Below, piece by piece: positions 13,471-35,359 of a DNA stretch of 54,466 nt. This DNA is from a candidate division WOR-3 bacterium UBA2202 (GTDB lineage Bacteria; Hydrothermota; 32-111). The position numbers were made by a program, and so were the translations under genes. The stretch spans positions 1 through 54,466 of the forward strand of contig DCUY01000105.1 of assembly GCA_002327905.1 (NCBI GenBank), given 5' to 3'. How positions within the stretch are numbered: position 1 is the stretch's first letter; the number at the start of each line of letters is the position of its first letter. A model generated the notes under the pieces. That model was not told the origin of the DNA and ran no database searches. It saw only the letters and a list, made by a program, of their open reading frames with translations.

Positions 13471-13480
13471 GGAGGTTTTT

Positions 13481-14371
13481 ATGAGAAAAGCGCGGATAAC
13501 GTTTTTGGGTGCATATCATCATATAACATGCAGGGCACTTGAAGGAAAACCTATACTTAAAGATGCCCACTGTAAAAATTATTTGATTCAGCTCATAAAG
13601 AAATACTCAAAACTTTGTGGAATAAAAATTCTTGCATATTGTATAATGGACAATCATTATCATCTTATAATTCAGAACACAAGCAATAAAATGGATAAAT
13701 TCATGAGAGATGTAAATGGGACTTTTGGGGCGTTTTATAGAAATCTCGATAATTCCCACGGCTATGTATTTCAAGACAGGTATTATTCAAAGATAATACA
13801 GAATGATGAGTATCTTAAGATTGCTTTGATTTATACTCTTTTAAATCCATACAGAGCCGGAATAATAGAGAATGTCTACGAATATGAATTTTCAACAATA
13901 ACTCGGTATTTCGGCGATAATAAAATAGACTGGATAGAGTATGAGTTTGTTAGGGATTTGTTTCAAAGTGAAAATAATTTTAAGTCTCTGCTGAATAGTT
14001 GGGCAGGCAAAACAATGCCGTATCTGAAGACAAAATTTGGAGATATTATAGGCGAAGAGAAATTTGTCGAAACCGTAGAAGAGAATTTTGACAGAAGAGT
14101 TGCGAAAGACATTCAGAATTCACCAAATATGAGAAATCAAAATGAATTTGAAGATAAAGAAACGATTATTAAAGAATTTTTGGATTTAAACCGAATTTCA
14201 TTAAAATCATTGGAAAAGGATTTGGTATTGAGAAATAAACTTCTTATCAAATTAAGAGAAGAGGGCGGATTGTCATTTAAAGAAATTAATAGAATATGTC
14301 CATTTAGTACTTTAAAATATTCGTCTATCATCTCTTTATATGGTAGGTTAAAGAAAAGAGAAAAAGTATAA
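13481..14371 (+). CDS. REP-associated tyrosine transposase-like protein (IS200/Y1 HUH family) with a C-terminal helix-turn-helix-like extension
   Basis: HUH motif in CIMDNHYHLIIQ and the catalytic-Tyr region YVFQDRYYSKII...YTLLNPYRAGI, typical of the RayT/IS200 TnpA fold. GGAGG at 13471-13475 precedes the ATG at 13481; the ORF-track TTG at 13469 is rejected. Confidence 0.72.
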   Translation: MRKARITFLGAYHHITCRALEGKPILKDAHCKNYLIQLIKKYSKLCGIKILAYCIMDNHYHLIIQNTSNKMDKFMRDVNGTFGAFYRNLDNSHGYVFQDRYYSKIIQNDEYLKIALIYTLLNPYRAGIIENVYEYEFSTITRYFGDNKIDWIEYEFVRDLFQSENNFKSLLNSWAGKTMPYLKTKFGDIIGEEKFVETVEENFDRRVAKDIQNSPNMRNQNEFEDKETIIKEFLDLNRISLKSLEKDLVLRNKLLIKLREEGGLSFKEINRICPFSTLKYSSIISLYGRLKKREKV

Positions 14372-14905: not shown

Positions 14906-15424
14906 ATGAAAAGATTTTTAACTACGGCAACTCTGTTGTCAATCATTTTCGGACTTCTTCTGATGCCCGTATCTGCTCAAGATCAGAACGGAAAGATGCA
15001 GTGTATGGAAAAAGAGATGATGAATCATCCTGACTGTCAGATGGGTGTAATGAATATTCCCGGCCTGACAGACGACCAGATAATGCAGATTGAGAAGTTA
15101 CACATTGCTCATCAAAAAAAGATGGTTGAGCTCAAATCAAAGCATGAACTTAAGATGATTGAACTTCAGGAAGTCATGCTCGTCAATCCTGATGAAAAGA
15201 AAGCTCTCTCAATCATTGAAGAAGCGGGAAAAATCGATATAGACATTCAGAAATCAAAGATTTCCAATCATTTTGCTGTCCGCAAGGTGCTCACAAAGGA
15301 CCAGCAGAAGTTCTTCGACCTTAAAAACGGCGGGATGTCAATGAAGAAAGATAAAGGCATGAATAATGGAAATTGCCAAAACAAAGATATGGGAAAAGAA
15401 AACTGCGGGAATTGCAGTAAATAA
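14906..15424 (+). CDS. Spy/CpxP family periplasmic chaperone-like protein with Met/Cys/His-rich termini
   Basis: Signal peptide (..PVSAQD) and two LTxxQ motifs (LTDDQIMQI, LTKDQQKFF). Met/Cys-rich N-terminal part (KMQCMEKEMMNHPDCQMGVM) and C-terminal tail (GGMSMKKDKGMNNGNCQNKDMGKENCGNCSK). Confidence 0.6.
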   Translation: MKRFLTTATLLSIIFGLLLMPVSAQDQNGKMQCMEKEMMNHPDCQMGVMNIPGLTDDQIMQIEKLHIAHQKKMVELKSKHELKMIELQEVMLVNPDEKKALSIIEEAGKIDIDIQKSKISNHFAVRKVLTKDQQKFFDLKNGGMSMKKDKGMNNGNCQNKDMGKENCGNCSK

Positions 15425-15436
15425 AACACACAGAGC

Positions 15437-15458
15437 GGGCGGGGCATCTGCTCCGCCC
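15437..15458 (+). promoter_or_regulatory. GC-rich stem-loop between the Spy-like gene and the sigma factor gene
   Basis: GGGCGGGGC-ATCT-GCTCCGCCC: 9-bp stem (8 GC plus 1 G.U) with a tetraloop and no downstream U tract. Lies in the 40-nt gap between the stop at 15424 and the ATG at 15465. Confidence 0.5.
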
Positions 15459-15464
15459 ATCTAT

Positions 15465-16034
15465 ATGGAATACCCCATTCTTAATGATGAACAATTAATT
15501 GATCTTGTAATGAAACAGGATCAACAAGCATTTAAGGAGATATTCGGAAGATACTCCAAGAAGATCTTTAATCTTGCATTCTCTTATGTGGGTGATTATC
15601 ATTATGCCGAAGAGATAACTCAGGATATCTTTGTTACAATTTACGGAAAAAGCTCGAGTTTTAAGAAAACATCCTCTTTTTCAACCTGGATATACAGAAT
15701 AGCGGTGAATGCGTCAGTTTCGCACTTAAGGAAGCACAAAAAGGATTTGATGCTTTGTGATATGGAGAGTGCGGAGGACCTGAGCGAGGAGCCGATTGTT
15801 CCGGAACCTCCAGATAGAAAAGAGACGGCAAATATTTTATTGAAATCCCTTCCGGAGAGTCAAAGAATGGCATTTATATTATCTCAAAAGGATAATTTGA
15901 AATATAAAGAAATATCCGCGATTATGAAAATTTCCGAAAAGGCTGTTGAATCTCTTATTTACAGAGCCAGAGAGAATCTTAGAAGGAGCATCAGGGAGAT
16001 GAAATCAAGTGAAACTCTAAAGGAGAATCTATGA
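15465..16034 (+). CDS. ECF-type RNA polymerase sigma factor (sigma-70 family, regions 2 and 4)
   Basis: Region 2 (FKEIFGRYSKKIFNLAFSYVGDYHYAEEITQDIFV..., WIYRIAVN) and region 4 HTH (LKYKEISAIMKISEKAVESLIYRARENLR). The start at 15465 removes the extension translated through the hairpin. Confidence 0.85.
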   Translation: MEYPILNDEQLIDLVMKQDQQAFKEIFGRYSKKIFNLAFSYVGDYHYAEEITQDIFVTIYGKSSSFKKTSSFSTWIYRIAVNASVSHLRKHKKDLMLCDMESAEDLSEEPIVPEPPDRKETANILLKSLPESQRMAFILSQKDNLKYKEISAIMKISEKAVESLIYRARENLRRSIREMKSSETLKENL

Positions 16035-16462: not shown

Positions 16463-16513
16463 TTGATTTTTCAGCCTCAGTCTGATATAATACTTGCAAC
16501 AATGGAGGCTGTT

Positions 16514-19500
16514 ATGACAAAAAAATATTTTTCCTTGTTTTTAATGATACTTATTTCACTTACAGTCTTTTCCGAACAGATAATAATTCAAATTAACAAT
16601 TCAAATGATTATAACAGAATAGTCAATGAACATGACAGCGGGTATTTTTATCACATTAAAGAAGCTTTACCTGTAATTCCTTCACAGAAATTCTATATAG
16701 AAATTGACGGAAAGGCAGTTCTTAAAGGTATTAAATTTAATGAAGGCAACAGAACTCTGCTCAGAGATGCTGTGATTTTATCCGGAGAGAATCCGCTTCC
16801 TCTAATTATGAAGCCAAAGGAGAGGTCAGTTTTAAAATCTGTAAAAAGCCGGCTCCCGGAATCCGATTATCAGATTAAAATCGGTTATAAAGACGGCAAG
16901 ACAATTTTTTACGGTTATGTCTCGGATTTTATTTATGAGGACGATATATTAAAAAAACGAAGCGGAGAATTAGTGATAGACTATTCAATTGTGAAAAACC
17001 CTGAGATAAAAAATCTGTCCAAAAGTATTTTAATAATAACTCTCGACTCACTCAAGACAAAATGGGAGGGTTATAAAGATTTTTATCCTGATTATGATGT
17101 ATCAATACTGTCAGTCAATGATATTTTAGGATTGACATCGCCCCAAGACACTTTCGTAGAGAACATAAGGGAATATATCAGTTACTGCTATGAGAATCAG
17201 GGGCTTAAAGGAGTTATTCTCGGAGCTGATGTTGATTATATTCCGGGAATTTATATTTCACTTGTAATCACTCCTGCGTTAACGGAAGAAGATCAGATCC
17301 TGATTACGGACAGATACTATTCTTGTATTGACGGAGACTGGAATTTTGACGGTGACTCATTATACGGAGAGATGGAGGATTCCATAGATTTGTTTCCTGA
17401 TGTGCTTCTCGGCAGAGTTCCTGCGAGAAACTCAGCAGATGTTGTAAATTTCCTATCAAAGGTGGCGGGTTTTAGAAATCTTGACATAGACACATTCCTC
17501 GGTGTTGCTTCATATCTTGATGCATACACTGATGGAGGGCTTAATATAGATAACATGATAACTCTGATTCCCATTACTTCACCTGTAAAAAAACTATATC
17601 AGTCACTCGGAAATTTGTCATCCGCGAGTTTTATAAATTCGCTAAATCAATCACCTATGCTTGTCACACATGACGGACACGGGAATTACAATGTGATTCA
17701 GACAGGAACCGATTATACTGATAACACAGATTTGGATTATTTGACAAATGTAAATCCGATTTTTATGTATTCACTTTCGTGCTTATCCGCCGCATATGAT
17801 GAAGACTGCGTTGCAGAGCATTTTCTACGCTCAACAGGTGGAGGATATTATCTCGGCAATTCGCGCTACGGATGGTACACGCCGTATTTCCCGGGATTCG
17901 GAACGGGAGACCTTCTCAATGGCGCTTTCTTTAAAAACATTTACAACAGCACACAGAATCCTGTTGATGCTCTCTACAGGACTTTCAATGAATACTCCTA
18001 TGAGATGAATGAGAAGAATGACTGGAGATGGCAGTTCTTCACACTCAATTATTTCGGCGACCCTATGGTTGACATAGAAACTGCAAAAGCAAAAAGCAAC
18101 ATCCAAATACAAGAGGCAATTTATAAAGACGGATATTTTTCAATGACAATGTATGTTGAGGATTCTGCTTTTGTAGAATTATCCTCAGATACTGTGATAA
18201 ACACCAAAGTCCTTTACCCGTGTGATAATGTTTTCTGCACAAAAATTGACAATTCCGATTCAATAATACTCCGCATAAAAACGCCTGAAACAGTTGACTT
18301 TGACACCGTCCTATACACTGAAGAGAATAAAGCAAAAAGCGCGTATATAAGTTCTTATGAAATAACCGAGTACAAAACGGATTCTCTTAAACTGCATATT
18401 GATTTTGTCACAGACAGCTCTGACACATACCTTTTGAAACCTCTCTCTGTTACTGATACTCTTCTGCCTGTTGTGCAGGATACTTTAATAGAGATTTCAA
18501 ATCCTTCTGACAGCGCGGAATATATATATGAAATAATCAGCCAGCCCTTAAACAGCACAATGCTTTCTTTTATAATCGGCAGTGACACTCTCTGTCTGCA
18601 ATACGGAAGAAACTTGAATGAGAGCATACTTTTCAAAGCAGTCCCTGACAAACAGCATTATTCAAACGGTGAGAGCGGACAGTTCTCTATATCCGTCAAG
18701 AATAAAGGACTGCTCAAAAATATGAATGTGGTCTTTCAAAGCGACACTGTTTTGCTGGACACTTTTCCGAATTTATCTGATGTAAAATTTAAACGGAATT
18801 TCACTGTCAGTTCCGCTTCAGCAAAAGCATATTTTTCATTTAATGTTTCAGGATATAATCAGAGCATGATTAAACAGTACGTTCTTTCAATAAATGATGA
18901 CTCTTCATATATGGATTTTGAAGACGGCAGGGAGATGGAGGTTGCAGACGGAGCGGCATCTTTCCACTTAAGCACAAACAGAGCATCGTCAGGCGACTAT
19001 TCATATTACTGCGGAGAGACATATACTCCTATTTACCCGCCTAATTATGTGACGGGAATTTATTCCGATACATTTCTATTTGACACAACATCATTTGTAG
19101 GATTTGATGCTTATATTGATATAGAGAGCGGAATGGATTATCTTGTTGTTTATCTGTATTCAGGAGATTTGTATGTTCCTGTAATAACACTCTCAGGCAG
19201 ACAAAATGCTTTCAAAACATACACATTCAATGCATCCGATTATTCAATTCTGAATGGTTTGAACACCCGTCTTGCTTTTGAGTTTTATTCGGAGGATGAC
19301 AGTTATCAGTATGAAGGAGTATATATAGATAATATTTTGATGCCCGGGGCTCTCAACTCGATGGGCATACATGAGAAGAATATACCGAGTATGTATAAAG
19401 GCATGCAGTTAAATCAGGAAGTGAGTATAAAGAATGGAATTCTATTTGCAGAGGGTTTTTCAGCTGACGCAAAATTTGACATTTTTGACCTCTCCGGAAG

Positions 19501-19630
19501 GACCGTTTCCAAGGGAATTTTAAGGAAGGGAGTTACTGCAGTCAAACTGAATGTTCCAAACGGAAAATACTTTTTCAGAGCTGTTGATTCAGGAACGGTC
19601 TTTAAAAAGTCATTCTATATTTTAAAGTAA
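16514..19630 (+). CDS. peptidase C25 (gingipain-like cysteine peptidase) family protein with T9SS C-terminal sorting domain
   Basis: C25-type region (DRYYSCIDGDWNFDGDSLYGE...FPDVLLGRVPA). Candidate dyad is His389 (THDGHGNY, codon 17678-17680) and Cys423 (SLSCLSAAYDE, codon 17780-17782), 34 residues apart. GGAGG precedes the ATG at 16514. C-terminus is ..NGKYFFRAVDSGTVFKKSFYILK. Confidence 0.75.
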   Translation: MTKKYFSLFLMILISLTVFSEQIIIQINNSNDYNRIVNEHDSGYFYHIKEALPVIPSQKFYIEIDGKAVLKGIKFNEGNRTLLRDAVILSGENPLPLIMKPKERSVLKSVKSRLPESDYQIKIGYKDGKTIFYGYVSDFIYEDDILKKRSGELVIDYSIVKNPEIKNLSKSILIITLDSLKTKWEGYKDFYPDYDVSILSVNDILGLTSPQDTFVENIREYISYCYENQGLKGVILGADVDYIPGIYISLVITPALTEEDQILITDRYYSCIDGDWNFDGDSLYGEMEDSIDLFPDVLLGRVPARNSADVVNFLSKVAGFRNLDIDTFLGVASYLDAYTDGGLNIDNMITLIPITSPVKKLYQSLGNLSSASFINSLNQSPMLVTHDGHGNYNVIQTGTDYTDNTDLDYLTNVNPIFMYSLSCLSAAYDEDCVAEHFLRSTGGGYYLGNSRYGWYTPYFPGFGTGDLLNGAFFKNIYNSTQNPVDALYRTFNEYSYEMNEKNDWRWQFFTLNYFGDPMVDIETAKAKSNIQIQEAIYKDGYFSMTMYVEDSAFVELSSDTVINTKVLYPCDNVFCTKIDNSDSIILRIKTPETVDFDTVLYTEENKAKSAYISSYEITEYKTDSLKLHIDFVTDSSDTYLLKPLSVTDTLLPVVQDTLIEISNPSDSAEYIYEIISQPLNSTMLSFIIGSDTLCLQYGRNLNESILFKAVPDKQHYSNGESGQFSISVKNKGLLKNMNVVFQSDTVLLDTFPNLSDVKFKRNFTVSSASAKAYFSFNVSGYNQSMIKQYVLSINDDSSYMDFEDGREMEVADGAASFHLSTNRASSGDYSYYCGETYTPIYPPNYVTGIYSDTFLFDTTSFVGFDAYIDIESGMDYLVVYLYSGDLYVPVITLSGRQNAFKTYTFNASDYSILNGLNTRLAFEFYSEDDSYQYEGVYIDNILMPGALNSMGIHEKNIPSMYKGMQLNQEVSIKNGILFAEGFSADAKFDIFDLSGRTVSKGILRKGVTAVKLNVPNGKYFFRAVDSGTVFKKSFYILK
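19421..19627 (+). other. type-A T9SS (Por) C-terminal sorting domain of the C25 peptidase
   Basis: Last ~69 aa: FDIFDLSGRTV...GKYFFRAV....KKSFYILK, the pattern of Por secretion tails. Confidence 0.6.
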
Positions 19631-23967: not shown

Positions 23968-24080
23968 AATTAAGCAGTTTCATTACAGTCAATAATATTT
24001 TCATTCTATTCTAATATAATAATTCATATTTGCCCATATTAAATTATCTTAAATCACATTTGAAGGTATTTTCATTGATA

Positions 24081-24109
24081 TTGAAAAATATAGAATTTAA
24101 TTGTATACT
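24081..24109 (+). promoter_or_regulatory. candidate promoter of cassette unit 1
   Basis: TTGAAA 24081-24086, 17-nt spacer, TATACT 24104-24109. GGAGG at 24119-23, ATG at 24128. Confidence 0.4.
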
Positions 24110-24127
24110 TATAAAAATGGAGGCAGG

Positions 24128-25051
24128 ATGAAGAGACTGTTGACATTGTTTCTTGTGATTGGAGTATTGGGGATATACGGACAGATAACAGAGGCCGAAA
24201 TACAAGCAGAGGCAGATACAATAATTCAAACTGATACTATCGGTACTGAGAATTTGCAGATTGAAGGTGATACAGCTTCATCAATTAAAGATTCATTATT
24301 TACCGAGGAAAGCAAAAAATACCAACAAGAGATAATAGAAAAGAAGGATAGCTCAATATCATGCTGTTTAAGCGGAAAGAATCAGCCGGAACAAAAATCG
24401 AAATGGAGTTTTGGAATAGGGTATGTGGGATCGTATAATAGTGCCATTCCTGATATGTTAACAGATTATGTATTATATCAAGTTGAATGGTTCGGAGAAT
24501 TGAGTTTAAATGATTGGCTAAGGCTTTATAATTATTGGATAAATGGATTGGAATTAAGCTATTTATGGAGATTGGAAAATAAAAATTGTTTTGAATTAAA
24601 TTTTTCAACTGGATATTTTTTAGCTGGATATACGGATAATAAAGGTATATATTCTTATTATGATGGTGTAAATTCGCTAGAATATAAAACGAAATCATTA
24701 AGCAATTATTCTCTCGGATTACTTTATTCAAAGAATTGTAAATATTTTATGGGTGTGGATATTATTTATTCTTCAATTGAAGGAGAAGAAGTATATCATT
24801 TAAATAGAGTAGTCATTGACACTGTTGAAGTTAATCGTAAGGGTATAGGTGTTGGTTTTGTTGGGAAAATGAGATTTACTCCATTTTTGCAATACAAAAA
24901 AATGTCATTGAGTAGTTATATGAGTTTAAAAATTGGAGGATCGATTGAAGTTTGGAACGATTCACCCTGGAAAGATATATGGCAAAACAATAGAAAATAC
25001 ATAACAAATTATACGGGTGTTAACTTTGGAATTCAAATAAACTGGAGATGA
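24128..25051 (+). CDS. cassette protein A1: secreted protein, predicted outer-membrane beta-barrel (unassigned family)
   Basis: Signal peptide MKRLLTLFLVIGVLGIYGQ, acidic linker, CC motif, amphipathic beta-like segments (WSFGIGYVG, IGVGFVGKMRF) and aromatic C-terminus GVNFGIQINWR. The TTG start at 24101 is rejected in favour of the ATG with GGAGG. Confidence 0.55.
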   Translation: MKRLLTLFLVIGVLGIYGQITEAEIQAEADTIIQTDTIGTENLQIEGDTASSIKDSLFTEESKKYQQEIIEKKDSSISCCLSGKNQPEQKSKWSFGIGYVGSYNSAIPDMLTDYVLYQVEWFGELSLNDWLRLYNYWINGLELSYLWRLENKNCFELNFSTGYFLAGYTDNKGIYSYYDGVNSLEYKTKSLSNYSLGLLYSKNCKYFMGVDIIYSSIEGEEVYHLNRVVIDTVEVNRKGIGVGFVGKMRFTPFLQYKKMSLSSYMSLKIGGSIEVWNDSPWKDIWQNNRKYITNYTGVNFGIQINWR

Positions 25052-25055
25052 TTAA

Positions 25056-25508
25056 ATGAAAAATATATTTATTATGATTATTGTGTTACTTACTTCCATG
25101 CTCATTTATTCTGATAATATCGCCCAGATTTATGTTCACGGAACCAAATCAGAAGCAGTTCCTTTGCAAAAAAATTATGATAAACCATATACTGGCGGTT
25201 GGACAACATGGTATCCATTGGATAAGGATAGCAATTTAGATTTTCCTACAGCAATGACTCAAATCGTTGAGGGGGGATACGATGGTTATAAATATGGAAA
25301 AACAGTAGATGGCGAATATGCCGTTATGTGTGATAAGAATACTGAATTAATGATTACGAATTATCCAAAATCAGTTTACAATTTTTCATATTATAGACAA
25401 GATGGAGAAAAGGGAGTAATTGGAAGCGGAAGCAATGGTCGACTTAAATGTATGGTTCAAAAAAATGTTCGAATAAAATCCGCAATTAGATTGCTTGATA
25501 ATTCATGA
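25056..25508 (+). CDS. cassette protein B1: small secreted protein (unassigned family)
   Basis: 150 aa with signal peptide. Motifs IYVHGTKSE, GGWTTWYP, GYDGYKYGK and NFSYY. ~80% identical to B2 and alignable to the N-terminus of the 1981-aa protein. Confidence 0.6.
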   Translation: MKNIFIMIIVLLTSMLIYSDNIAQIYVHGTKSEAVPLQKNYDKPYTGGWTTWYPLDKDSNLDFPTAMTQIVEGGYDGYKYGKTVDGEYAVMCDKNTELMITNYPKSVYNFSYYRQDGEKGVIGSGSNGRLKCMVQKNVRIKSAIRLLDNS

Positions 25509-25522
25509 CAAAGTGCTAATAT
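25495..25522 (+). promoter_or_regulatory. candidate promoter of cassette unit 2, overlapping the B1 3' end
   Basis: TTGATA 25495-25500, 16-nt spacer, TAATAT 25517-25522. The homologous position before unit 3 has TTGACA. Confidence 0.4.
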
Positions 25523-25547
25523 TGGATTATTATAATCAGGAGGCAGG

Positions 25548-26498
25548 ATGAAGAAACTTTTGACATTGTTTCTTGTGCTTGGAGTATTGGGGATATACGG
25601 ACAGATAACCGAGGCAGAACTACAGATACAAGCAGATACAACACAAAATGCCGATACAATAATTCAAACTGATACTATCGGTACTGAGAATTTGCAGATT
25701 GAAGGTGATACAGCTTCATCGATTAAAGATTCATTATTTACCGAAGAAAGCAAAAAAGACCAACAAGAGATAATAGAAAAGAAGGAAAGCTCGGTATCAT
25801 GCTGTTTAAGCGGAAAGAATCAGCCAGAACAAAAATCGAAATGGAGTTTTGGAATAGGGTATGTGGGAGAATATAATTATGCGGGCCCGCATTTGATTGC
25901 TAATTATTTGGACAGAGTTGAATGGATTGGAGAATTGAATTTATATCAGCTATTGACATTATTCAATTATTGGATGAATGGTGCTGAAATGTATATAAAA
26001 TATTTAAATTTAAACAAATTAATCTTAATCAATTCATTAAGCTATGCATATACAGAAAGAACTCATTGTTCAATTATGACAGACTATGTCATTCTTGATG
26101 ATTCAACTTTAGCAGCAAATTATGATATTTATAATATAAAGAAAATTTTTACTAGTTTTTTATTTTCTAAAAATAACTTTGTTTTTGGTGGGCCTTGTAT
26201 TGAAATAACAGATGTAGCTGGATTAGAAACTCTATATAAACGAAAGGATGAAAAATGGCAAAAAGATAGCACAGAAGTTCGAAGGGTTGGATTAGGACTG
26301 GGAGTTGATTTCAGAATTATATATAATTCATTACAAATGTATAATATAAAATTGCCAACATTATGGTTTGGAATAAAAGTAGGTCAAACGCTTGAGGTGT
26401 GGAACAACTCGCCATGGAAGGAAGTTTGGTGTGATAGTAAACTCATAGTTGGTTTCACAGGTATTAATTTCGGGCTTCAAGTAAATTGGGGAAAATAA
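25548..26498 (+). CDS. cassette protein A2: secreted protein, predicted outer-membrane beta-barrel (paralog of A1)
   Basis: The first ~107 aa are nearly identical to A1, the centre is divergent, and the C-terminus is conserved (EVWNNSPWKEVW...GINFGLQVNWGK). Confidence 0.55.
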   Translation: MKKLLTLFLVLGVLGIYGQITEAELQIQADTTQNADTIIQTDTIGTENLQIEGDTASSIKDSLFTEESKKDQQEIIEKKESSVSCCLSGKNQPEQKSKWSFGIGYVGEYNYAGPHLIANYLDRVEWIGELNLYQLLTLFNYWMNGAEMYIKYLNLNKLILINSLSYAYTERTHCSIMTDYVILDDSTLAANYDIYNIKKIFTSFLFSKNNFVFGGPCIEITDVAGLETLYKRKDEKWQKDSTEVRRVGLGLGVDFRIIYNSLQMYNIKLPTLWFGIKVGQTLEVWNNSPWKEVWCDSKLIVGFTGINFGLQVNWGK

Positions 26499-26499
26499 A

Positions 26500-26964
26500 A
26501 TGAAAAATATATTTATTATGATTATTGTATTGCATATTTCGTTATTAGTTTCATCTGATAATATAGCTCAAATCTATGTTCATGGAACAAAGTCTGAGGC
26601 AATACCTTTGCTTAGGTTTTTTGATTTAACAAAACTCAAAGTAGTTTTAGCCGGTGGTTGGACTACTTGGTACCCAATGGATCCAATAGATTCTTCTCTA
26701 CTTTTTCCAACAGCAATGACACGAATAGTAGAAGAAGGCTATGCCGGTTATAAATATGGAAAAACAATAGATGGCGAAGATGCTGTGATGTGTGATAAGA
26801 ATACAGAATTAATGATTACGAATTATCCAAAATCGGTTTACAATTTTTCATATTATAGACAAGATGGAGGACAGGGAGTAATTGGAAGCAATGGACGACT
26901 TGAGGGTATGGTTCAAAAGAATGTTCGAATAAAATCCGCAGTTAGATTGCTTGACAACTCATGA
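26500..26964 (+). CDS. cassette protein B2: small secreted protein (paralog of B1)
   Basis: 154 aa. Starts 1 nt after the A2 stop and carries the same motifs as B1. Confidence 0.6.
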   Translation: MKNIFIMIIVLHISLLVSSDNIAQIYVHGTKSEAIPLLRFFDLTKLKVVLAGGWTTWYPMDPIDSSLLFPTAMTRIVEEGYAGYKYGKTIDGEDAVMCDKNTELMITNYPKSVYNFSYYRQDGGQGVIGSNGRLEGMVQKNVRIKSAVRLLDNS

Positions 26965-26978
26965 CAAAGTGCTAATAT
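26951..26978 (+). promoter_or_regulatory. candidate promoter of cassette unit 3, overlapping the B2 3' end
   Basis: TTGACA 26951-26956, 16-nt spacer, TAATAT 26973-26978. GGAGG precedes the ATG at 27003. Confidence 0.45.
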
Positions 26979-27002
26979 TGGATATTATAAAATGGAGGCA
27001 GG

Positions 27003-27965
27003 ATGAAGAGACTTTTGACATTGTTTCTTGTGATTGGAGTATTGGGGATATACGGACAGACAACAGAGGGTGATGATGAAATAATTCCAGATTCAATAAA
27101 AGCGGAAACCAAAATTATACCAGAATCTAAGGTTTTCATAAATGACAATAACAAATTAACGGATAAAAATGTCAGCAACAAGGAGACAAAAACGTATTGC
27201 TGTTTTCAAGGAATATTAGCTCCTGTATTTAAACAATATGAAAATGACACATTGAAATCAACAAATGACGAAGTTTATTGCTGTTGCATGATTGATTTGA
27301 GGGGATTTCAGAAAGAAAATTGTCAGGATTCTTCAGCATATAGCATTGGATATACTTTAAATGTTTATCCTAGGGTTTTTTATTCACCGTACGACGGTCA
27401 AACATTCTTAGGAGCAGGTCAAGACGGATACCTTCGAGCCGGTAACCCTCTTTGTTTGTTTCATAAGATTGAGATATGTCATAACATAAATTTACTAAAT
27501 AAAATACCATTTAAAATAGGATATAATTATGAGTATTCAAATTCAATTGATAAAGTAGCAGATGTGTATGTGAAATCATCAAATATAGAATATTCCTTGC
27601 GTTATTATAACGGATTGAACCTATTTACATTTCATTCTTTAGGTATAAATATGTATAAAGAAAGCGGCTGTTTTAGAATGGGGTTGTCTAATGGGATTAC
27701 ATATATGAAACAAGAATTTTATGCTGTGTATTTAGGTGATGATGAATGGTATAACATTGATGTAAATAGGTTGCATTATCAAATCGGTGTAAATGCAGGG
27801 ATTAATTATACAGTATCAAATCATGTAACACTCAGTTTTGGTATGGAGTATAAAAGATATTTTCAAATGACATCATATGTTAACTATCCAGATATAATTT
27901 ATGAAGTAAATAAAATAAATCTGGGTATAGTTACGCATTTTATAACACTCATCTTCAATTTTTAG
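27003..27965 (+). CDS. cassette protein A3: divergent paralog of A1/A2, predicted outer-membrane beta-barrel
   Basis: Identical signal peptide MKRLLTLFLVIGVLGIYGQ, CC/CCC motifs, beta-like alternation (YQIGVNAGINYTV, VTLSFGMEYKRYF), and a terminal Phe (..ITLIFNF). Confidence 0.5.
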   Translation: MKRLLTLFLVIGVLGIYGQTTEGDDEIIPDSIKAETKIIPESKVFINDNNKLTDKNVSNKETKTYCCFQGILAPVFKQYENDTLKSTNDEVYCCCMIDLRGFQKENCQDSSAYSIGYTLNVYPRVFYSPYDGQTFLGAGQDGYLRAGNPLCLFHKIEICHNINLLNKIPFKIGYNYEYSNSIDKVADVYVKSSNIEYSLRYYNGLNLFTFHSLGINMYKESGCFRMGLSNGITYMKQEFYAVYLGDDEWYNIDVNRLHYQIGVNAGINYTVSNHVTLSFGMEYKRYFQMTSYVNYPDIIYEVNKINLGIVTHFITLIFNF

Positions 27966-27973
27966 GAGAAAAC

Positions 27974-30900
27974 ATGAAAAGAGTATCATTTTACATATTC
28001 ATACTTTATTCTATTAACTTGCTTTCAACCCCAACAATATTTATAACAGGAATAAAGTCCGAGGGTGTAGACACAATGGGATTCAAAACGTGGAATGATA
28101 TCGAAAAAGAGAATCCGGATGATCCCGTTTACTACTCCTGCATGCATCAAGTAGCTGGTTATAAGGGCTATCAATTATCTCCCGTATTAGATTGTAATAA
28201 GTATGTTGTCTTACCTTCAGGCTTGGATGAAAACACGATGTTTAATTTTTCATATTATGACATTTCAAGTTCAATATCTGGAGTAATTTCAATTTCTGCA
28301 GATAGTGTACGGGTCTATTTTAAAAACTACACTTGCAGTGCGGGAGCGGCTACTTTTGTTTTCATGCCTTTTATGGATGAATATCCAATAGAGGATTATG
28401 ATTCGGTAAAATATGTACCAAAATATTTACCAGATTTACATCTAATGACATATCAAACTTTGTATGGTGTTAAGGACGGATATTATTTAGGAGATTACGG
28501 TAAAAATTATATTGATCATTGGAAGAGAAATCGCTATGCAGAGCATTTGTGTAAATTTATAGATAAAGTGTTAGCATCAACGGGAGCGAGTAAAGTTAAT
28601 CTTGTGTGTCATTCAATGGGTGGTTTGGTTGCAAGAGCGGCTCTAATTGGATATGGATATTCATCAAAAGTATATAAGATAATAACTGCAGGTACTCCTC
28701 ACCAATCGTTGGAAGGTGATGCCGGGGAATTGTTTTATAGAGTATCTATGGAACCACAAGGTTGGCAAAAATCGGGAGAATTGATGGAGTTAGATGTAGA
28801 ATGCGATTATACATATGGTGATATTAAGTTCTACGATTTAGAAACAGGAGAGAGAAAAGATTTTGCAGATATGCTTGGTTATGATGTAAATCCAACAAGG
28901 ATAGTTTGCATTTCAGGTGATAGAAATGCTGGATTAGGAGGAACATTATACTCTAACGAGCCAAATGATGGACTTATTTTTAATAGCATTTCTACACTCA
29001 AACCTTCAAGCCTTGCAGATTACAATCCGATTATATATGCCAGTCATTCTATGTCTGGAGATATATTGAGTTTCAACAATTTAGGACAACTTGAATTATC
29101 ATTAACTCATTGCACCTATGTTACAGAATTTATAAAAAAATGGCTTATTGATGATACCATCATTGAATTTACTGGAACTGCTGAAGATTTAGATGCTAAA
29201 TTTTATGTAGTTACTGACGAAGCAGGCAATAAAACATCTCGTTCGGTTAGAGTGCAAATTGAAAATAACGGAACATCCAATATTAATTATGGAGATTTTT
29301 TGTCGTTATTAGCTTATCCCATAGAGAAAATTGTAATAAGTGGTGATACCAACGAGATAAGCCCATATGTTGGAATATCATTATCTAATGCATATGACAA
29401 TAGAAGAATTATAGGTAACCCGATGGGAAGTCCAATCTTTATGATGAATTGTGAATATAATAACACTACATTTGATTTAACAGATGAATATCGTTCAGCA
29501 ATTTATTTATATGATATGAAAGGATTGATAACAACCGATAAAATCTACAACTATGCTCCTTTTGACAACTGGGGAGATGCAATAGCACCATATGTTGATT
29601 TGTTTCCCGGCGTTGTAGATCTTGCACTTGCTACAGCATTAACCACATATAATATTAATTGGATATCAAATGATATATCCGTAAGGAATAGATTGTGGTA
29701 TATAAGAGCTGGGAGTTTGGAGATAATAGACAGCGTCATACCCGGCTCGGCAATGAGCAAAAGCTTCAGGATACCGCCATTGAGGAGCTCAAAAACAATC
29801 CCTTCTCATCCGTCAACTTATAATCTGATGCAGTTTAATGTAAGATATGAGCTTGATGATAATGGATATTTTTGCCAAAACAGCAAGTGGCTGACTATCA
29901 GCACACCTGACTGGAATCCTGATAATTTGAGATTAGTGTATCAGGATGAGGATTCAATAAAGTTGGCTTGGACAGACAGCTATAACTTAGTTGATAAAAT
30001 TTTTCGAAACGATACAGCAACAGCGAATATGGTAAGAAATGTTAACACATATTCGGATAGGGGTTTTAAAAGAGGAGCGAATAATTACTATGAGGTGCAT
30101 TCGAGATGGGTATATCCGAATGGGGATACTTTAATAAGTGAGAATGACAACAATACACATAGAGAAACCGTGTTTGGAATACCTTGCAATGCGCCTAAAG
30201 CATATCCGATAGCGTGTATCTGGCAACCAAACGATAAGGCATTGATAAAATGGATTGACAATTCAAATCATGAGGAAGGATATAGAATAAAGATAAAGCA
30301 GAACGATACACTTAAAGGAACAAAAGATACAATAATAAATTTGGCCGAAGATCCCGATACATTGGAATGGATGCATCAGACAACGAAAATTGGGCAAATG
30401 AAGTATATCGTATATTCAATGAATAAAGGAGCATTTTCAAAGGATTCGGTGGAATATATCAATTATAGAGGATACGGAACACCGCTTATTTCGATAGATA
30501 GTATTGAACTAAGTAAGGGAACCGTAAGAATAAAAGGAGATACTATATTAACCGGAACGAGAAGAAAACTGAACGGAGATATAATTTCAATAGAAGCGTA
30601 TAAAGAAGGATTTGAAAATAAAATACTAAAGTCGGAATTCATAAAAGATGATAATGCGCAGATAATAGGAATTAAGAACAGCGATATGTATGCGGGAATA
30701 AACGGGTCAAGCACAAATAGAGATTCGATAATCTGGATTTATGTTAAGGAAGGAAATCGTTACACGAAAAAGTACATTGAAGATCTTCTCTATACACCTG
30801 TAGATTTGACTGATCAGAGACCGAAACTTCTCTCTGCGATATATAAGAACAATTACATACATTTGCTTGTGAGTTTTAAGTCAACGAACTCCGCAACAAA

Positions 30901-33900
30901 ATCTGTTTTGGTTTTATTCAGGATTGACAATAACTGCAATTACATAACTTATCACAGTATTCAAAGCTTGAAAGGGATTCTTGATTTTAATGGAACGATA
31001 GAAAGCAAGGGTGCGAATGAGATTGTGATAGGATACAGCGGGAAGGACGAATCAAGCGGTAAAATAACCGGATTAAACATTATTTCGACAGGAACTTCGT
31101 CTTATGCCACAATTACGACATATTCTCCGTATGCTAACACCAGTTTCAACAAGAGCTTTGAAGAAACCTTTGACTTGGAGATGCTGACCGATTCAATTCT
31201 TTACCTGTTAAGCCATAAGGTGGGAACAACCTTTGACACGTTAAAAGCAGTGAAATATGATATGAAAAACAAGATTCAAGCTTCAATAGACTATATAAAT
31301 ATCAGTTCTTCAGCAGTGGCAGATTATTTTCAATTTCCGAGGATAGTTAAGTATAGGGATTATATGGTTGCCAGCTGGTTGAATTATGAGGACAGTGGAT
31401 TTGACAGAATCTATACGAAGAAATATTCATTGACAGAGAAGAGCGGAATAGAGGTTGCAAAAGAGACAAACTGGAATGATACATATGTAAATGATTATCT
31501 AATAGTTAAGAATGAAGCAGATGAAGGATTAGAATTAGTAACAGAAGAGGCACTTTTTTCATATGGTGTAAAAGGGTTAAAGCGAATCGATTACAAACTA
31601 CCGGTAATGAAAATAATAATGAATGATGAATTATCGTGGTATAAAAATGGCACTTTTACAGTGAAAGTGACAGACGGGAATGGATTGAAACTCAGCAATG
31701 CCAAGGTGTCGGTAACAAACGGAGTAGATATAGATTTTGAAGGGACGACTGATGTAAATGGCGAAGTGACGGTTTCGTATTTTACAAGAAGTTCTAATAA
31801 GATAACAATAAAGGCGGTAAAAGCATTTTACGGGGATTGTGTGAAAAAGTTTTTGGTAACAACGAATACGATGGAAGTGAACTGCGTAAAAGAGGTCAGC
31901 GCATTCAAGGATACAACAATAGAGATAGGAGTTTATACATATACAATCGGACTTGAGGAAGTTGTAGCACATAAAGTGGCGGTTCCGTCTGCTGAAGTGA
32001 TATTGAGCAATGGAATAAATATAGAAGATACATCAATAACTGCGGCGAATGGCAAGGTAATGGCTGAAATAAGCGGCAGGGATACGATTGAATGGCTCGG
32101 AAGGGACTGTTATGTGGATTATACAAAGGAAATAGATGTAATAGTTTCAAAAGAGGGATATAAAACAGAGACGGTTAAGATAAAGAAGGAGATGAGAAGC
32201 AACAGCAGTAGCGCTACAGGGTATAATAACAGCAATCATGTGATAAAAAGGGACGAGTTAAATTTATACATGGCTTATGGAGACGGAGACAGCGTAGTGT
32301 TTGGACGGAGCAACAATTTTGGAGAATGGTGGATGCTTGAGAAGGTGGGAGAAGGGAAGAATCCTTCAGTGGCATTTGCAGGAGAAGGCACAGTGGCAAT
32401 GTTGTATACGGGGCTTGACAGTCTCGGATATTATTATACATACACAGAATCGCCTTTTCAGCCGATAGATACAGTGTATCCGACAGTGATAGATTGTGAG
32501 CCGGGAGTAATAGCAGGAAATGTATTGACAGGGAAGGTATATGTGGCTGGAATAATGCATCCTCTTAAGGGGCTGGATTACGGCAATCTTTTATATGCAG
32601 AGTTCATGTTTGACAATCTTGACGGAATAGTGGAGACAACATTAGTGCCTGCAACATTAGAGGAATATACGCCGAAATCTTGGCAGAGCATAGCGACATA
32701 TTATGACAAGTATATGAAGAAGTACTATCCCGTTGTTGTTTATGGAGACATATACGGAGAGATAAACTTGGTTAAGTATGACGGGATAGACGGAATGTGG
32801 ATGCCGCCTGTCGGAGTGACAAGGACAAGCGAGGAATCAAAGGAGAGTTATATATCATCAAACGGCGAGAAGACTGCAGTAATATGGAGCGAGGAAAGGA
32901 CCATCGGCTCAAATACTTGGGATATATGGCTTAACGGAGAGTTGTATAAGACAAGCGGAGCAGAGAGCTATACTGAACCGAAGATAAAGGCAGGAAATTA
33001 TGTTGCGTATAATGAGAGCAAAGAAAGAATAGGTCTTGACCTGTATGGGTTGAATTACATTGGAGCGGACATAAGGACATCAGCCGAAGACAGTGTTTAC
33101 TATCCTGATTTTGAATTTAAGACAGAATACAATAGAACCGGACTTGAATTGAATCATACAATGTATCTGGTGTGGACGGAGAAGACTGGAAGCGCATATA
33201 CAGTTAAGGATACGATAATAGAGGTAAAGACAAGCGGAGATTTGCAGGCATTTATTGCGGGTGAGTTTACAGATACGATAACTGAATTGGCTGATTCACC
33301 GTTACGAGATATAATCAATAACGGAAGGGAGAAGATAGAGAGGCTGTACATGGAAATAGGCGAGATAGAGTCGGATAAGGAATACAAACTGACAGTGACC
33401 ACAACCAACCCGAACAAGAACTATCCTTATCTTTTGATGATAGACGGAATAGCTGTTGATACGATAGAAAAAGAGGATGAGACGACAGAGGTTTATCTGA
33501 CAGAAGATATGAAGTCGGACAACACGATATTGATAACACTTGACAGGGTAAAGGGAAACCCGAACAGAGTTGCAAAGATGGAGATACGGAAGTATGATGA
33601 AGTGACAAATGTATCAATACTCGGAAGCGCCATAGTTAAAATGATTACAGAGAAGAAGGGAATAAAAGAGCATGTGAAGATAAAGACAATGAGCAAGGGA
33701 CTGATAGAGATGACAATAGAAGGAGACTGCGGCGGGAATCTTGAGATGGAGATATATGATGTCGCTGGCAGAAGGACAATGAAAGAGACTTTTAAAAATC
33801 TAAAAAACGGATATAATGAGATAATCTTAAATGCGAATGAACTGTCAGGCGGAGTCTATTTCTACAGATTGAATACAAGATCAAACCAATACAAAGGAAA

Positions 33901-33919
33901 GATTGTATTGATTAAATAA
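27974..33919 (+). CDS. 1981-aa multidomain T9SS cargo: B-like N-terminal module, lipase-type alpha/beta hydrolase, FN3/Ig-like repeats, C-terminal sorting domain
   Basis: N-terminal ~120 aa align to B1/B2. Nucleophile elbow VNLVCHSMGGLVARAAL (Ser214, codon 28613-28615). FN3-like segments (PDNLRLVYQDEDSIKLAWTD), Ig/CRD-like segments (VKVTDGNGLKLSNAKVSVTNG..TTDVNGEVTV), and a Por-type tail. Confidence 0.7.
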   Translation: MKRVSFYIFILYSINLLSTPTIFITGIKSEGVDTMGFKTWNDIEKENPDDPVYYSCMHQVAGYKGYQLSPVLDCNKYVVLPSGLDENTMFNFSYYDISSSISGVISISADSVRVYFKNYTCSAGAATFVFMPFMDEYPIEDYDSVKYVPKYLPDLHLMTYQTLYGVKDGYYLGDYGKNYIDHWKRNRYAEHLCKFIDKVLASTGASKVNLVCHSMGGLVARAALIGYGYSSKVYKIITAGTPHQSLEGDAGELFYRVSMEPQGWQKSGELMELDVECDYTYGDIKFYDLETGERKDFADMLGYDVNPTRIVCISGDRNAGLGGTLYSNEPNDGLIFNSISTLKPSSLADYNPIIYASHSMSGDILSFNNLGQLELSLTHCTYVTEFIKKWLIDDTIIEFTGTAEDLDAKFYVVTDEAGNKTSRSVRVQIENNGTSNINYGDFLSLLAYPIEKIVISGDTNEISPYVGISLSNAYDNRRIIGNPMGSPIFMMNCEYNNTTFDLTDEYRSAIYLYDMKGLITTDKIYNYAPFDNWGDAIAPYVDLFPGVVDLALATALTTYNINWISNDISVRNRLWYIRAGSLEIIDSVIPGSAMSKSFRIPPLRSSKTIPSHPSTYNLMQFNVRYELDDNGYFCQNSKWLTISTPDWNPDNLRLVYQDEDSIKLAWTDSYNLVDKIFRNDTATANMVRNVNTYSDRGFKRGANNYYEVHSRWVYPNGDTLISENDNNTHRETVFGIPCNAPKAYPIACIWQPNDKALIKWIDNSNHEEGYRIKIKQNDTLKGTKDTIINLAEDPDTLEWMHQTTKIGQMKYIVYSMNKGAFSKDSVEYINYRGYGTPLISIDSIELSKGTVRIKGDTILTGTRRKLNGDIISIEAYKEGFENKILKSEFIKDDNAQIIGIKNSDMYAGINGSSTNRDSIIWIYVKEGNRYTKKYIEDLLYTPVDLTDQRPKLLSAIYKNNYIHLLVSFKSTNSATKSVLVLFRIDNNCNYITYHSIQSLKGILDFNGTIESKGANEIVIGYSGKDESSGKITGLNIISTGTSSYATITTYSPYANTSFNKSFEETFDLEMLTDSILYLLSHKVGTTFDTLKAVKYDMKNKIQASIDYINISSSAVADYFQFPRIVKYRDYMVASWLNYEDSGFDRIYTKKYSLTEKSGIEVAKETNWNDTYVNDYLIVKNEADEGLELVTEEALFSYGVKGLKRIDYKLPVMKIIMNDELSWYKNGTFTVKVTDGNGLKLSNAKVSVTNGVDIDFEGTTDVNGEVTVSYFTRSSNKITIKAVKAFYGDCVKKFLVTTNTMEVNCVKEVSAFKDTTIEIGVYTYTIGLEEVVAHKVAVPSAEVILSNGINIEDTSITAANGKVMAEISGRDTIEWLGRDCYVDYTKEIDVIVSKEGYKTETVKIKKEMRSNSSSATGYNNSNHVIKRDELNLYMAYGDGDSVVFGRSNNFGEWWMLEKVGEGKNPSVAFAGEGTVAMLYTGLDSLGYYYTYTESPFQPIDTVYPTVIDCEPGVIAGNVLTGKVYVAGIMHPLKGLDYGNLLYAEFMFDNLDGIVETTLVPATLEEYTPKSWQSIATYYDKYMKKYYPVVVYGDIYGEINLVKYDGIDGMWMPPVGVTRTSEESKESYISSNGEKTAVIWSEERTIGSNTWDIWLNGELYKTSGAESYTEPKIKAGNYVAYNESKERIGLDLYGLNYIGADIRTSAEDSVYYPDFEFKTEYNRTGLELNHTMYLVWTEKTGSAYTVKDTIIEVKTSGDLQAFIAGEFTDTITELADSPLRDIINNGREKIERLYMEIGEIESDKEYKLTVTTTNPNKNYPYLLMIDGIAVDTIEKEDETTEVYLTEDMKSDNTILITLDRVKGNPNRVAKMEIRKYDEVTNVSILGSAIVKMITEKKGIKEHVKIKTMSKGLIEMTIEGDCGGNLEMEIYDVAGRRTMKETFKNLKNGYNEIILNANELSGGVYFYRLNTRSNQYKGKIVLIK
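33701..33916 (+). other. type-A T9SS (Por) C-terminal sorting domain of the 1981-aa protein
   Basis: LEMEIYDVAGRRT....LSGGVYFYRLNTRSNQYKGKIVLIK. Confidence 0.65.
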
Positions 33920-33973: not shown

Positions 33974-34002
33974 TTGACAAAACCTATTTTTTATAATATA
34001 AT
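33974..34002 (+). promoter_or_regulatory. candidate consensus promoter for rpmB
   Basis: TTGACA 33974-33979, 17-nt spacer, TATAAT 33997-34002. TAGGAG precedes the ATG at 34034. Confidence 0.5.
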
Positions 34003-34225: not shown

Positions 34226-34285
34226 CTATTGACACTTAAAGTATTATGAATTATATTTATCCTAAAGTTATTTAGGAGAAAAATA

Positions 34286-35359
34286 ATGAAAAAATTTCTT
34301 TTATCGATAGTTTTATTGTTCTCTACAACAGTACTTATCTTTTCAACCGCCTCCCAAGCAGGTGCGATCTTCTTGATGATCTATCCGGGTTCTCGCGCCG
34401 TAGGTTTGGGCAACGCATACACTGCAATTTCGGATGATGCGCTTGCTACCTACTACAATCCTGCCGGGTTGGGTTTGCAGGACAAGAAAGATATTGTGCT
34501 TATGCATGTCGAATGGCTTCCCGGGCTAAATGCAGGTATGTATTATGAGTTCGCAGGAGTCGTTGTTCCCACGAAGTACGGTGTTTTCGGAGGAAGTTTG
34601 ATTTATCTTACGACCGGCGAGACATCTGCGACAAGCGACAATGACCCTACAGCCACTTGGAACACATTCGATCTTGCAGTAACCTTATCTTACGCCTATA
34701 AATTAAGAAACAATCTCTCAGTAGGCGCTTCTGGCAAATTCATCTATTCATTTTTGGCACCGGATTGGGTAGTTCAGGATTTTTCGATAGGCAGTGGAGG
34801 GCAGGGGCAATCAGTGGCTCTGGATTTGGGTGTGATATATAATCCCACGAAAACAACAACATTAGGATTGTCACTCTCAAACATGGGTCCCGGAATTCAG
34901 TACATCGCAGAAGGAAGCATAGACGATCTTCCCTGCGCGCTTCGACTAGGCATCAAACAGATGATTCTGGAGAACAGACTCAACAAACTCATGTTCACAT
35001 CAGACATTACCAAAGTCTTTGCAGGAATTGACCTTGATTCCCTCAATGACTCCGATTTTGTCTTTGAGTTCTCAAGATTATCCGAAAAGAAGAATTCTAC
35101 TGAGGATTCTCTTCATTTGAGCATGCTTGAAGCGGAATTTTTGGACACATGGCTGAGCTTCGGCCTTGAGTATCTCTATTATGATTTATTCGCTTTGAGG
35201 GCAGGCTACTTTGTGGACAGCTACGGCGAAAGAATCGGATTTACTTTCGGCGGCGGAGTTATAGTCAAAAACAGCATCCGTATTGACCTTGGCGTTGACT
35301 CAGACATCTACAAATTTGAAACTGCGAATTACCGCATCTCCTTAGGCTTCAAGTGGTAG
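34286..35359 (+). CDS. PorV/PorQ-like outer-membrane beta-barrel protein
   Basis: Signal peptide, then GAIFLMIYPGSRAVGLGNAYTAISDDALATYYNPAGLG, the N-terminal motif I associate with PorV/PorQ-type barrels. C-terminal ..YRISLGFKW. Confidence 0.55.
   Translation: MKKFLLSIVLLFSTTVLIFSTASQAGAIFLMIYPGSRAVGLGNAYTAISDDALATYYNPAGLGLQDKKDIVLMHVEWLPGLNAGMYYEFAGVVVPTKYGVFGGSLIYLTTGETSATSDNDPTATWNTFDLAVTLSYAYKLRNNLSVGASGKFIYSFLAPDWVVQDFSIGSGGQGQSVALDLGVIYNPTKTTTLGLSLSNMGPGIQYIAEGSIDDLPCALRLGIKQMILENRLNKLMFTSDITKVFAGIDLDSLNDSDFVFEFSRLSEKKNSTEDSLHLSMLEAEFLDTWLSFGLEYLYYDLFALRAGYFVDSYGERIGFTFGGGVIVKNSIRIDLGVDSDIYKFETANYRISLGFKW

Follow-up and report, generated by a model that had tools for sequence, protein, structure and literature searches.

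The PorP/SprF-like outer-membrane (OM) proteins adjoin the genes for type B cargo of the type IX secretion system (T9SS), e.g., sprB-sprF in Flavobacterium johnsoniae. The foldase Lif is an alpha-helical, inner-membrane-anchored chaperone encoded downstream of its lipase, barrels of the OmpW and OprG type move small hydrophobic molecules, an activity that would suit lipase products, and orphan toxin-immunity cassettes lie downstream of cdiA or rhs in the contact-dependent inhibition (CDI; cdiA-CT/cdiI) and Rhs systems. Here we describe a locus that can be compared with each of these, found in a stretch of 54,466 nucleotides (nt) on contig DCUY01000105.1 of assembly GCA_002327905.1 (UBA2202), which in its whole length is called the window. 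The locus is an array of three head-to-tail copies of one two-gene module, a gene for a predicted OM beta-barrel protein (A) followed by a lipase gene. Taken together, the data are probably best explained by a tandem array of the OM-barrel gene and a Sec-exported lipase gene, in which two small genes, B1 and B2, are truncated leftovers of the lipase; in the anatomy of the locus and the origin of the B genes we have high confidence.

Only unit 3 is intact, with A3 followed by a lipase of 1981 residues (the giant) that consists of a variable head, a conserved body and a T9SS type A tail. In units 1 and 2 the A genes are whole and the lipase genes are reduced to their first ~140 codons (B1 and B2); because its lipase gene is truncated, A1 is an orphan. 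The features are as follows.

24081-24109, forward strand: promoter-like site before A1, TTGAAA-17-TATACT, then the ribosome-binding site (RBS) GGAGGCAGG
24128-25051, forward strand: A1, 307 residues from the ATG at 24128; signal peptide, acidic linker with CC motif, and predicted OM barrel with NDSPW..W in the C-terminal part
25056-25508, forward strand: B1, 150 residues, putative lipase-head remnant
25495-25522, forward strand: putative duplication junction and promoter-like site before A2, a consensus match
25548-26498, forward strand: A2, 316-residue barrel paralogue
26500-26964, forward strand: B2, 154 residues, putative lipase-head remnant
26951-26978, forward strand: second putative junction and promoter-like site before A3, TTGACA-16-TAATAT with TG
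27003-27965, forward strand: A3, 320 residues, divergent barrel type paired with the intact lipase
27974-33919, forward strand: giant lipase, 1981 residues
27974-29593, forward strand: variable lipase head of the giant, residues 1 to ~540, alpha/beta hydrolase
29594-33730, forward strand: conserved body of the giant
30254-30265, forward strand: body codons ATT GAC AAT TCA (I761-S764), which hold the TTGAC microhomology
33731-33916, forward strand: T9SS type A C-terminal sorting domain of the giant, TIGR04183 match
34286-35359, forward strand: PorV/PorQ-family T9SS outer-membrane protein (NF033709), directly 3' of the giant

A preliminary description of this DNA had recognized three head-to-tail units, which the similarity of A1 to A2 (E 1e-86) and of B1 to B2 (E 5e-75) bears out. 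Its placement of the A genes, B1, B2 and the 1981-residue open reading frame (ORF) was correct, as was the spacing of 1-8 nt between each A gene and the next gene (4, 1, and 8 nt in units 1, 2, and 3). The size of 316-320 residues given for the A proteins applies to A2 and A3 and fails for A1, which would reach 316 residues only from the upstream TTG at 24101. The -35/-10-like boxes proposed for each unit were also found. Before A2, the -35 box TTGATA comes from the 'DNS' codons that end B1 and the extended -10 box TGCTAATAT from A-upstream sequence, and the -10 boxes before A2 and A3 are both TG-extended. All these sites are consensus matches only, the whole region holding 65 of them against 52 +/- 7 in shuffles.

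The small genes had been taken for a secreted partner of the barrel, which became fused to a giant cargo in unit 3. Our analysis reverses this direction: B1 and B2 appear to be 3'-truncated copies of a lipase catalytic head, and since they are cut-down heads, the giant would be the intact form and not a fusion product. This reading follows from a related locus, L002 (GCA_050239825.1), in which an A2 orthologue (P0005, 80% identical) lies directly 5' of a full-length lipase whose head matches B2. Residues 1-144 of that lipase, which has at least 883 residues and runs off the contig, are 87.5% identical to B2 and 72% to B1. The similarity to B2 ends at KNV(K/R)I, before the nucleophile region, and the L002 protein runs on past ...KNVKI into a normal lipase domain with CHSMGG. 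The B proteins and the giant N-terminus share only 27% identity, and a tblastn search of the window with B1 returned only B1 and B2 at E <= 0.01. The homology claimed in the preliminary description is nevertheless secure because intermediates link the two: B2 resembles the head of the L002 lipase, which in turn is 52% identical to the giant over 932 columns.

In an alignment of 23 lipase heads, the motifs of B (IFVHG, W, GY.GY, an invariant C, NFSYY, and GVI) proved to be N-terminal motifs of the whole lipase subfamily; the invariant cysteine is C74 in the giant. B1 and B2 still have a signal peptide and an oxyanion strand (IYVHG in B1), contain no GxSxG, and end ~70 residues short of the nucleophile position. 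They thus correspond to the N-terminal third of the lipase catalytic domain without Ser, Asp, and His, and the catalytic apparatus of a lipase was not found in them. In the model of the giant head, strands 21-25, 67-74, and 88-93 fall within the stretch to which B aligns and probably belong to the hydrolase core. A search of 5.8 billion sequences for homologues of B1 returned only B1 itself and B2. We rejected an assembly artefact as the source of B, as the same truncated B with the same tail is present in the independent assembly L009.

Truncated lipases also occur in other arrays of this kind. The L002 array consists of an A3-type A with a 781-residue lipase, another A type with a lipase split into 407 and 321 residues, and the A2 orthologue with its lipase of at least 883 residues. 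Truncated lipases of 781 and 789 residues in L002 and L007, with break points at ~765-775 residues, end with ...IKW/RVDNS followed by RKSANMGLYNQEAG and keep ~200 residues of body homology; L007 has a further truncated lipase of 176 residues, and those in L012 have 169 residues (ending before the nucleophile) and 257 residues (ending just past AHSMGG). The lipase head is fused directly to the A barrel in P0059 (310 residues) and in a 320-residue ORF of L022 (665-1627), both of which retain the lipase signal peptide and oxyanion strand, and P0051 (477 residues) consists of two A barrels in tandem. These fusion ORFs show ongoing deletions in such arrays.

The close clade shares one junction, in which the IDNS codons of the body are followed by sequence matching ~45 nt upstream of an A start codon. 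There, TTGAC(A) from the coding sequence occupies the place of the native -35 box (TTGACC in L002), with the extended -10 box next to it. In the window, the LDNS stop region of the B copies and the sequence downstream match this junction, and everything between codon ~140 and the junction is missing. We propose that a segment from the A promoter to lipase codon ~764 was tandemly duplicated via the short TTGAC microhomology, by which a promoter-like site for the next A would have been recreated at the junction. A further internal deletion may then have cut the truncated copies down to B, and gene conversion between the copies would have followed.

The conserved pair appears to be A with a lipase. 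Wherever a related locus extended far enough downstream to be read, the next gene after the A-family gene began within ~10 nt and encoded a lipase or a piece of one, with an overlap of the two genes at some loci. This applies to the close clade (the window, L002, L007, L008, L009, and L149) and to metagenome-assembled genomes (MAGs) of the candidate division WOR-3 type (L010/L011, L012, L015, L016, L020/L021, and L022); several distant relatives of A sit on contigs too short to show a neighbour. The conserved A-B pairing described earlier therefore stands insofar as A is tightly and repeatedly paired with a downstream gene, and falls insofar as that partner across genomes is the lipase and not B. 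Accordingly, the survey for A-B adjacency in other genomes yielded A-lipase adjacency instead, and the window-type combination of A with truncated B recurs in L009, where an orthologue of A1 (82% identical) is likewise followed by a truncated B. Another gene takes the place of A upstream of some lipases of the wider subfamily (L013, L018, and L019).

The assemblies closest to the window are GCA_050239825.1 (isolate CA_2019_TPIn_165) and MAG STE_119 (JAQVDU01), and relatives of the module at a greater distance carry the label candidate division WOR-3. The upstream proteins in the latter share the architecture of a signal peptide, a Cys-rich CIGxGCCL, KFSIGISY and an aromatic end, and hhalign relates them to the A profile with a probability of 96.7%. 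No T9SS tail was seen on the A-linked lipases of the WOR-3 MAGs, and the link between A and lipase is thus independent of T9SS. Four module contigs (L007, L009, L020, and L022) bear the labels Vulcanibacillus sp., Patescibacteria group, Omnitrophota, and 'archaeon', which are probably binning errors because the contigs are near-identical to unclassified or WOR-3 MAG contigs. In a pattern-based scan with TypA, which gave no placement in a phylum and overlooked even the close relative already identified, the top matches came from Acidobacteriota at ~58% identity. In L010, the A-lipase pair is followed at 7963-10309 by three paralogous proteins of 243-282 residues with glycine-rich hydrophobic segments, a CCL motif reminiscent of the CC of A, and a final ..KF or ..EF; an ORF of 2742 residues comes next (10325 onward).

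The traits attributed to the A proteins in the preliminary description are all present: A1-A3 share the signal peptide MK(R/K)LLTLFLV(I/L)GVLGIYGQ, an acidic low-complexity linker and the CC motif, and their C-termini are aromatic (..IFNF in A3, ..INWR and ..NWGK in the others). A1 and A2 are 52% identical overall, ~92% over the first 100 residues and 33% in the barrel, and the matches of both to A3 (E ~1e-10) are limited to the first ~100 residues. The AlphaFold2 model of A3 is disordered over residues 1-109 and all-beta over residues 113-319, with 9-10 long antiparallel strands and a predicted local distance difference test score (pLDDT) above 90 over much of the C-terminal half. All its Foldseek matches in the PDB at E <= 0.001 are OM beta-barrel proteins, including the Dot/Icm porin, OmpA-TM, OmpX, Ail, NspA, OpcA, TtoA, OmpT, and OmpW. 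A3 is therefore predicted to be a small OM beta-barrel, as had been proposed from its sequence, and the signal peptide, the all-beta barrel and the aromatic C-terminus place the A proteins in this class at the level of prediction.

An exhaustive profile search of 1.84 billion representative proteins defined the A family as 43 clusters at E <= 0.001, nearly all of them proteins of 216-348 residues that match over the barrel region; the collection of 5.8 billion sequences yielded it only from a handful of uncultured bacteria, and scanning metagenomes with the A profile gave just two short contigs. The shared motifs are FGIGYSGGxC, YWLNSIE, GxGYGW, VxRxxxGGG, and NNSPWxxxW. The last is carried by most of the family including A1 and A2, not by A3, and its position just before the last strand suggests an outward-facing loop. 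The A3-type barrel is probably a divergent member of the family, being colinear with the typical A family over 150 columns in hhalign (E 4.7e-5, probability 68%). The CC motif stands just before the barrel in the window clade (A residues ~75-95), the WOR-3 relatives have C..GCC instead, and most other members have a single Cys in GGxC and RxCxGGG. Pfam and NCBIfam scans gave nothing meaningful for A1-A3 and B1-B2 and matched no model above its cutoff among the 43 family members, and searches of PDB sequences with A-family profiles returned only noise (among it designed SAKe proteins and, at E 0.05, an 'outer membrane protein'). Judged by these profile comparisons, A represents an unnamed family with neither a Pfam nor an NCBIfam model.

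The head of the giant matches Pfam PGAP1 (34.2 bits, cutoff 24.3), Abhydrolase_1, and Lipase_2, all above their cutoffs. Its nucleophile is Ser214 in HSMGG (residues 213-217; Ser codon at 28613-28615), and candidates for the catalytic Asp and His lie in NDGLIF and IYASHS. The best PDB sequence relatives are family I lipases of Burkholderia and Pseudomonas, Bacillus LipA, and PhaZ7. The AlphaFold2 model of residues 1-450 (pLDDT 77.6, predicted template modelling score 0.81) is an alpha/beta hydrolase whose Foldseek neighbours are lipases and PhaZ7, and the giant thus has the GxSxG elbow within the fold typical of such lipases. The head (residues 1 to ~540) is 30-45% identical to the heads of the L008 lipase and the L002 lipase of at least 883 residues, and from about residue 540 on the identity is mostly 85-98% in bins of 60 residues; the window, L008, and L002 hence carry three different heads on essentially one body, for which the Pfam scan gave no confident domain assignment.

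The designation of the giant as T9SS cargo also holds at the level of prediction. Its residues 1921-1978 match TIGR04183 with 25.6 bits (cutoff 23), PF18962 is matched at E 2e-4, below its cutoff, the N-terminus is hydrophobic, and the PorV/PorQ-family neighbour (NF033709, 206 bits, cutoff 90) represents the T9SS parts of the genome, all of which points to a type A cargo. Two promoter-like sites precede the PorV/PorQ gene: TTGACA-17-TATAAT at 33974-34002, which is perfect, and another at 34229-34257 that agrees in 11 of 12 positions. Elsewhere in the window, a Peptidase_C25 (gingipain/PorU-like) protein of 1055 residues is encoded at 16463-19630 on the forward strand and has a weak TIGR04183 tail match (E 8e-4). 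It evolves fast, since it is 54% identical to its syntenic counterpart in L005, compared with 75-89% for the neighbouring genes. Located 5' of it (15366-16034, forward strand) is an extracytoplasmic function (ECF)-type sigma-70 family factor (Sigma70_r2, r4_2), a possible regulator of surface-protein genes.

Each unit is a mosaic produced by recombination. The DNA identity of unit 1 to unit 2 is 87-94% in the promoter and the first ~300 nt of A, ~50% in the barrel, 68-76% across the end of A and the start of B, and 91-94% in the 3' half of B and the junction; unit 2 resembles unit 3 over the first 100 nt only. Variable are the lipase head and the A barrel; conserved are the 5' end of A and the lipase body with the T9SS tail. 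The L009 copy of B is B1-like in its first third and B2-like in the middle, therefore gene conversion among heads is active, and conversion can import selected sequence into a non-functional copy.

Between the window and GCA_050239825.1, the cassette genes are 80-89% identical in nucleotides with synonymous divergence (dS) of 0.3-0.8, in comparison with 73-78% and dS of 1.7-4 for the flanking TypA, OadB, and MFS genes. The A/B array with the lipase head (window 24000-29600) has a guanine-plus-cytosine (GC) content of 31-34% versus 42-44% for TypA, OadB, and PorV. The closer relationship of the cassette genes than of the housekeeping genes, together with the lower GC, suggests that cassettes have been exchanged between lineages. 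An IS200-like Y1 transposase-family protein (PF01797) is encoded in the window at 13469-14371 (forward strand), and in L008 an ORF of 326 residues (105-1085), transposase-like by eye, lies directly 5' of the A-giant pair, which hints at an association of some module copies with a mobile element.

The likeness to PorP/SprF noted in the preliminary description is confined to the layout: in both cases a gene for an OM barrel of ~300 residues stands beside a very large T9SS cargo, in several paralogous pairs. We rejected membership of A in this family because the models do not match. A1-A3 had no match to TIGR03519 or PF11751 at E <= 1, and among the 43 A-family members a single one was hit (Pfam E 0.004, NCBIfam E 0.045), with scores nowhere near the cutoffs. 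PorP/SprF barrels are encoded downstream of cargo with a type B domain, whereas A lies upstream of cargo with a type A tail, varies with the N-terminal head of the cargo rather than with its tail, and also accompanies lipases without any T9SS tail. The best solved sequence relatives of the head are family I.1/I.2 lipases, which are served by Lif (PDB 2es4, 9g8u), and if A is a helper, the two systems would have in common a dedicated envelope-anchored helper in the same operon. A Lif-like foldase was nevertheless rejected for A, as the A3 model is all-beta after a disordered linker and without family match; unlike Lif, A is a predicted OM barrel encoded upstream, and the two proteins have no sequence similarity. 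In fold, the A3 model is best matched by the small barrels OmpA-TM, OmpX, Ail, OmpW, and OprG, from which A differs by the absence of any sequence relationship and by an extra N-terminal extension of ~90 residues with the CC motif.

In its layout the locus comes closest to the CDI and Rhs orphan cassettes, in mirror-image form. In both, a large secreted protein joins a conserved body to a polymorphic catalytic domain with sharp limits, and the small gene next to it varies along with that domain. Truncated copies of the domain, displaced together with their neighbour genes, form a tandem series alongside the main gene, and strains differ in the domain that the same body carries. In contrast to CDI and Rhs, the locus has its variable domain at the N-terminus and its cassettes upstream, all variable domains are homologous lipases instead of unrelated toxins, the neighbour is a predicted integral OM barrel, and export would proceed by Sec and T9SS. 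The likeness is one of layout, toxicity and immunity being hypothetical here.

Concerning the role of A, we tentatively favour a docking and/or product-hand-over barrel for the lipase head. A would be a lipase-dedicated OM partner, produced in step with the lipase, that holds the catalytic head to the surface of the membrane and/or hands the hydrophobic products of the head on into the outer membrane; B1 and B2 would be by-products without an enzymatic role. A direct cooperation of A and the lipase at the outer membrane is suggested by the tight coupling of the genes, adjacent in all readable loci, by the apparent restriction of the A family to these lipase loci, by the conservation of NNSPW..W, in a presumed loop, in most of the family, and by the at least partly joint variation of barrel and head. 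Several observations weigh against this picture. The correlation between barrel and head identity is moderate only (Spearman 0.44 over 55 pairs, which are not independent), and co-inheritance alone would give one. The barrels of A1 and A2 are 39% identical though the adjoining heads are 81% identical, and those of A3 and L007a are 38% identical though their heads are 71% identical. Given the tail-less A-linked lipases of the WOR-3 MAGs, the role of A cannot depend on T9SS. In the proposed origin of B, the few codons just ahead of LDNS give no clean alignment with the body, and the internal-deletion step is reconstructed only in part. Finally, the ratio of nonsynonymous to synonymous substitution rates (dN/dS) among B1, B2, the L009 copy, and the intact L002 head is low (0.16-0.21) and all three B copies are open over ~140 codons, which could mean that B is still used. 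We rejected dN/dS as a test of function for B since each copy is a patchwork of the others and of intact heads, and gene conversion from intact heads explains the same numbers; we regard B as a remnant for which some residual role is rather unlikely. The low ratios, which are 0.16-0.18 among the three B copies, together with intact ORFs, signal peptides and a shared stop region in B1, B2, and the L009 copy, are what speaks for B as a genuine small secreted protein that works with the barrel and was fused to the large cargo in unit 3. This is highly improbable, because B is a catalytic-domain third devoid of its catalytic residues, had no homologues besides B1 and B2 in the large sequence collection, and exists at full length as the same gene in a related genome, and because the differing truncation points and head-to-barrel fusions of other lineages are as expected of decay products.

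The architecture shared with CDI and Rhs makes an immunity reading attractive, as T9SS cargo needs its interchangeable domain at the N-terminus. The head would then be an antibacterial or self-endangering (phospho)lipase, A its immunity-like protective partner, and units 1 and 2 displaced orphan cassettes kept for protection, placed upstream because the C-terminus of T9SS cargo is reserved for the sorting signal. We consider it unlikely, although it accounts for the sharp boundary between three heads in three genomes and a body that stays mostly 85-98% identical, for a variable block that takes in barrel and head together, for the intact A genes next to truncated lipases in at least four independent arrays, for cassettes of lower GC that are closer between genomes than the housekeeping genes, and for the 781-789-residue copies of L002 and L007, which have a complete catalytic domain without a secretion tail. 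However, the nearest sequence and fold relatives of the head are ordinary secreted lipases and the polyhydroxybutyrate depolymerase PhaZ7, no entry described as a type VI secretion system lipase effector was among the matches listed, and literature searches gave no report of T9SS delivering toxins into neighbouring cells. To our knowledge, every lipase immunity protein described to date is either soluble or a lipoprotein and none is an integral barrel, and the pairing of heads 81% identical with barrels 39% identical would be odd for specific neutralization. There is a slim chance that the locus represents possibly the first polymorphic effector system for the type IX pathway, with swappable N-terminal lipase 'warheads' on a conserved T9SS carrier, each encoded behind its own barrel A as a new class of membrane-embedded immunity protein; it is equally doubtful that 'barrel + warhead stub' cassettes pile up upstream because they are kept for cross-protection. 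Alternatively, the upstream units could serve surface variation, as a reservoir of barrel-and-head variants that are recombined into the expressed position under pressure from phages or grazers. Conserved recombination arms (the 5' end of A and the body) do flank a hypervariable block, the same body carries different heads in different genomes, the mosaic B copies indicate gene conversion, and the ~200 residues of body homology in the truncated copies of L002 and L007 could act as the right-hand arm. The window B copies, however, keep almost no body sequence and so are no longer recombinable into the giant, the upstream A genes are not silent given their own promoter-like sites and RBS, the long body, which would also be exposed, is highly conserved, and no within-population switching was observed; such a reservoir is improbable.

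The duplication and decay behind the B genes are ordinary. What has not been described before is the A family, its strict linkage to lipases, and the N-terminal head-swapping on a T9SS carrier; literature searches on T9SS immunity, orphan or polymorphic systems, and WOR-3 lipases yielded no description of the module. The small 'partner' genes are gene fragments and not a new small protein family, which corrects a tempting misreading of such loci. Our results define an unnamed OM barrel family that stands before a secreted lipase gene in every readable locus, and they offer a way into the use of surface lipases by organisms that lack cultured representatives. Modular evolution at the N-terminal end of T9SS cargo is evident from the exchange of heads and from the stubs upstream. 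A protective barrel would bring T9SS, and immunity proteins integral to the membrane, under the polymorphic toxin-immunity principle. A barrel for docking or uptake would make the module a minimal lipid-harvesting device, following a logic like that of the barrel-plus-surface-enzyme pairs of polysaccharide utilization loci.

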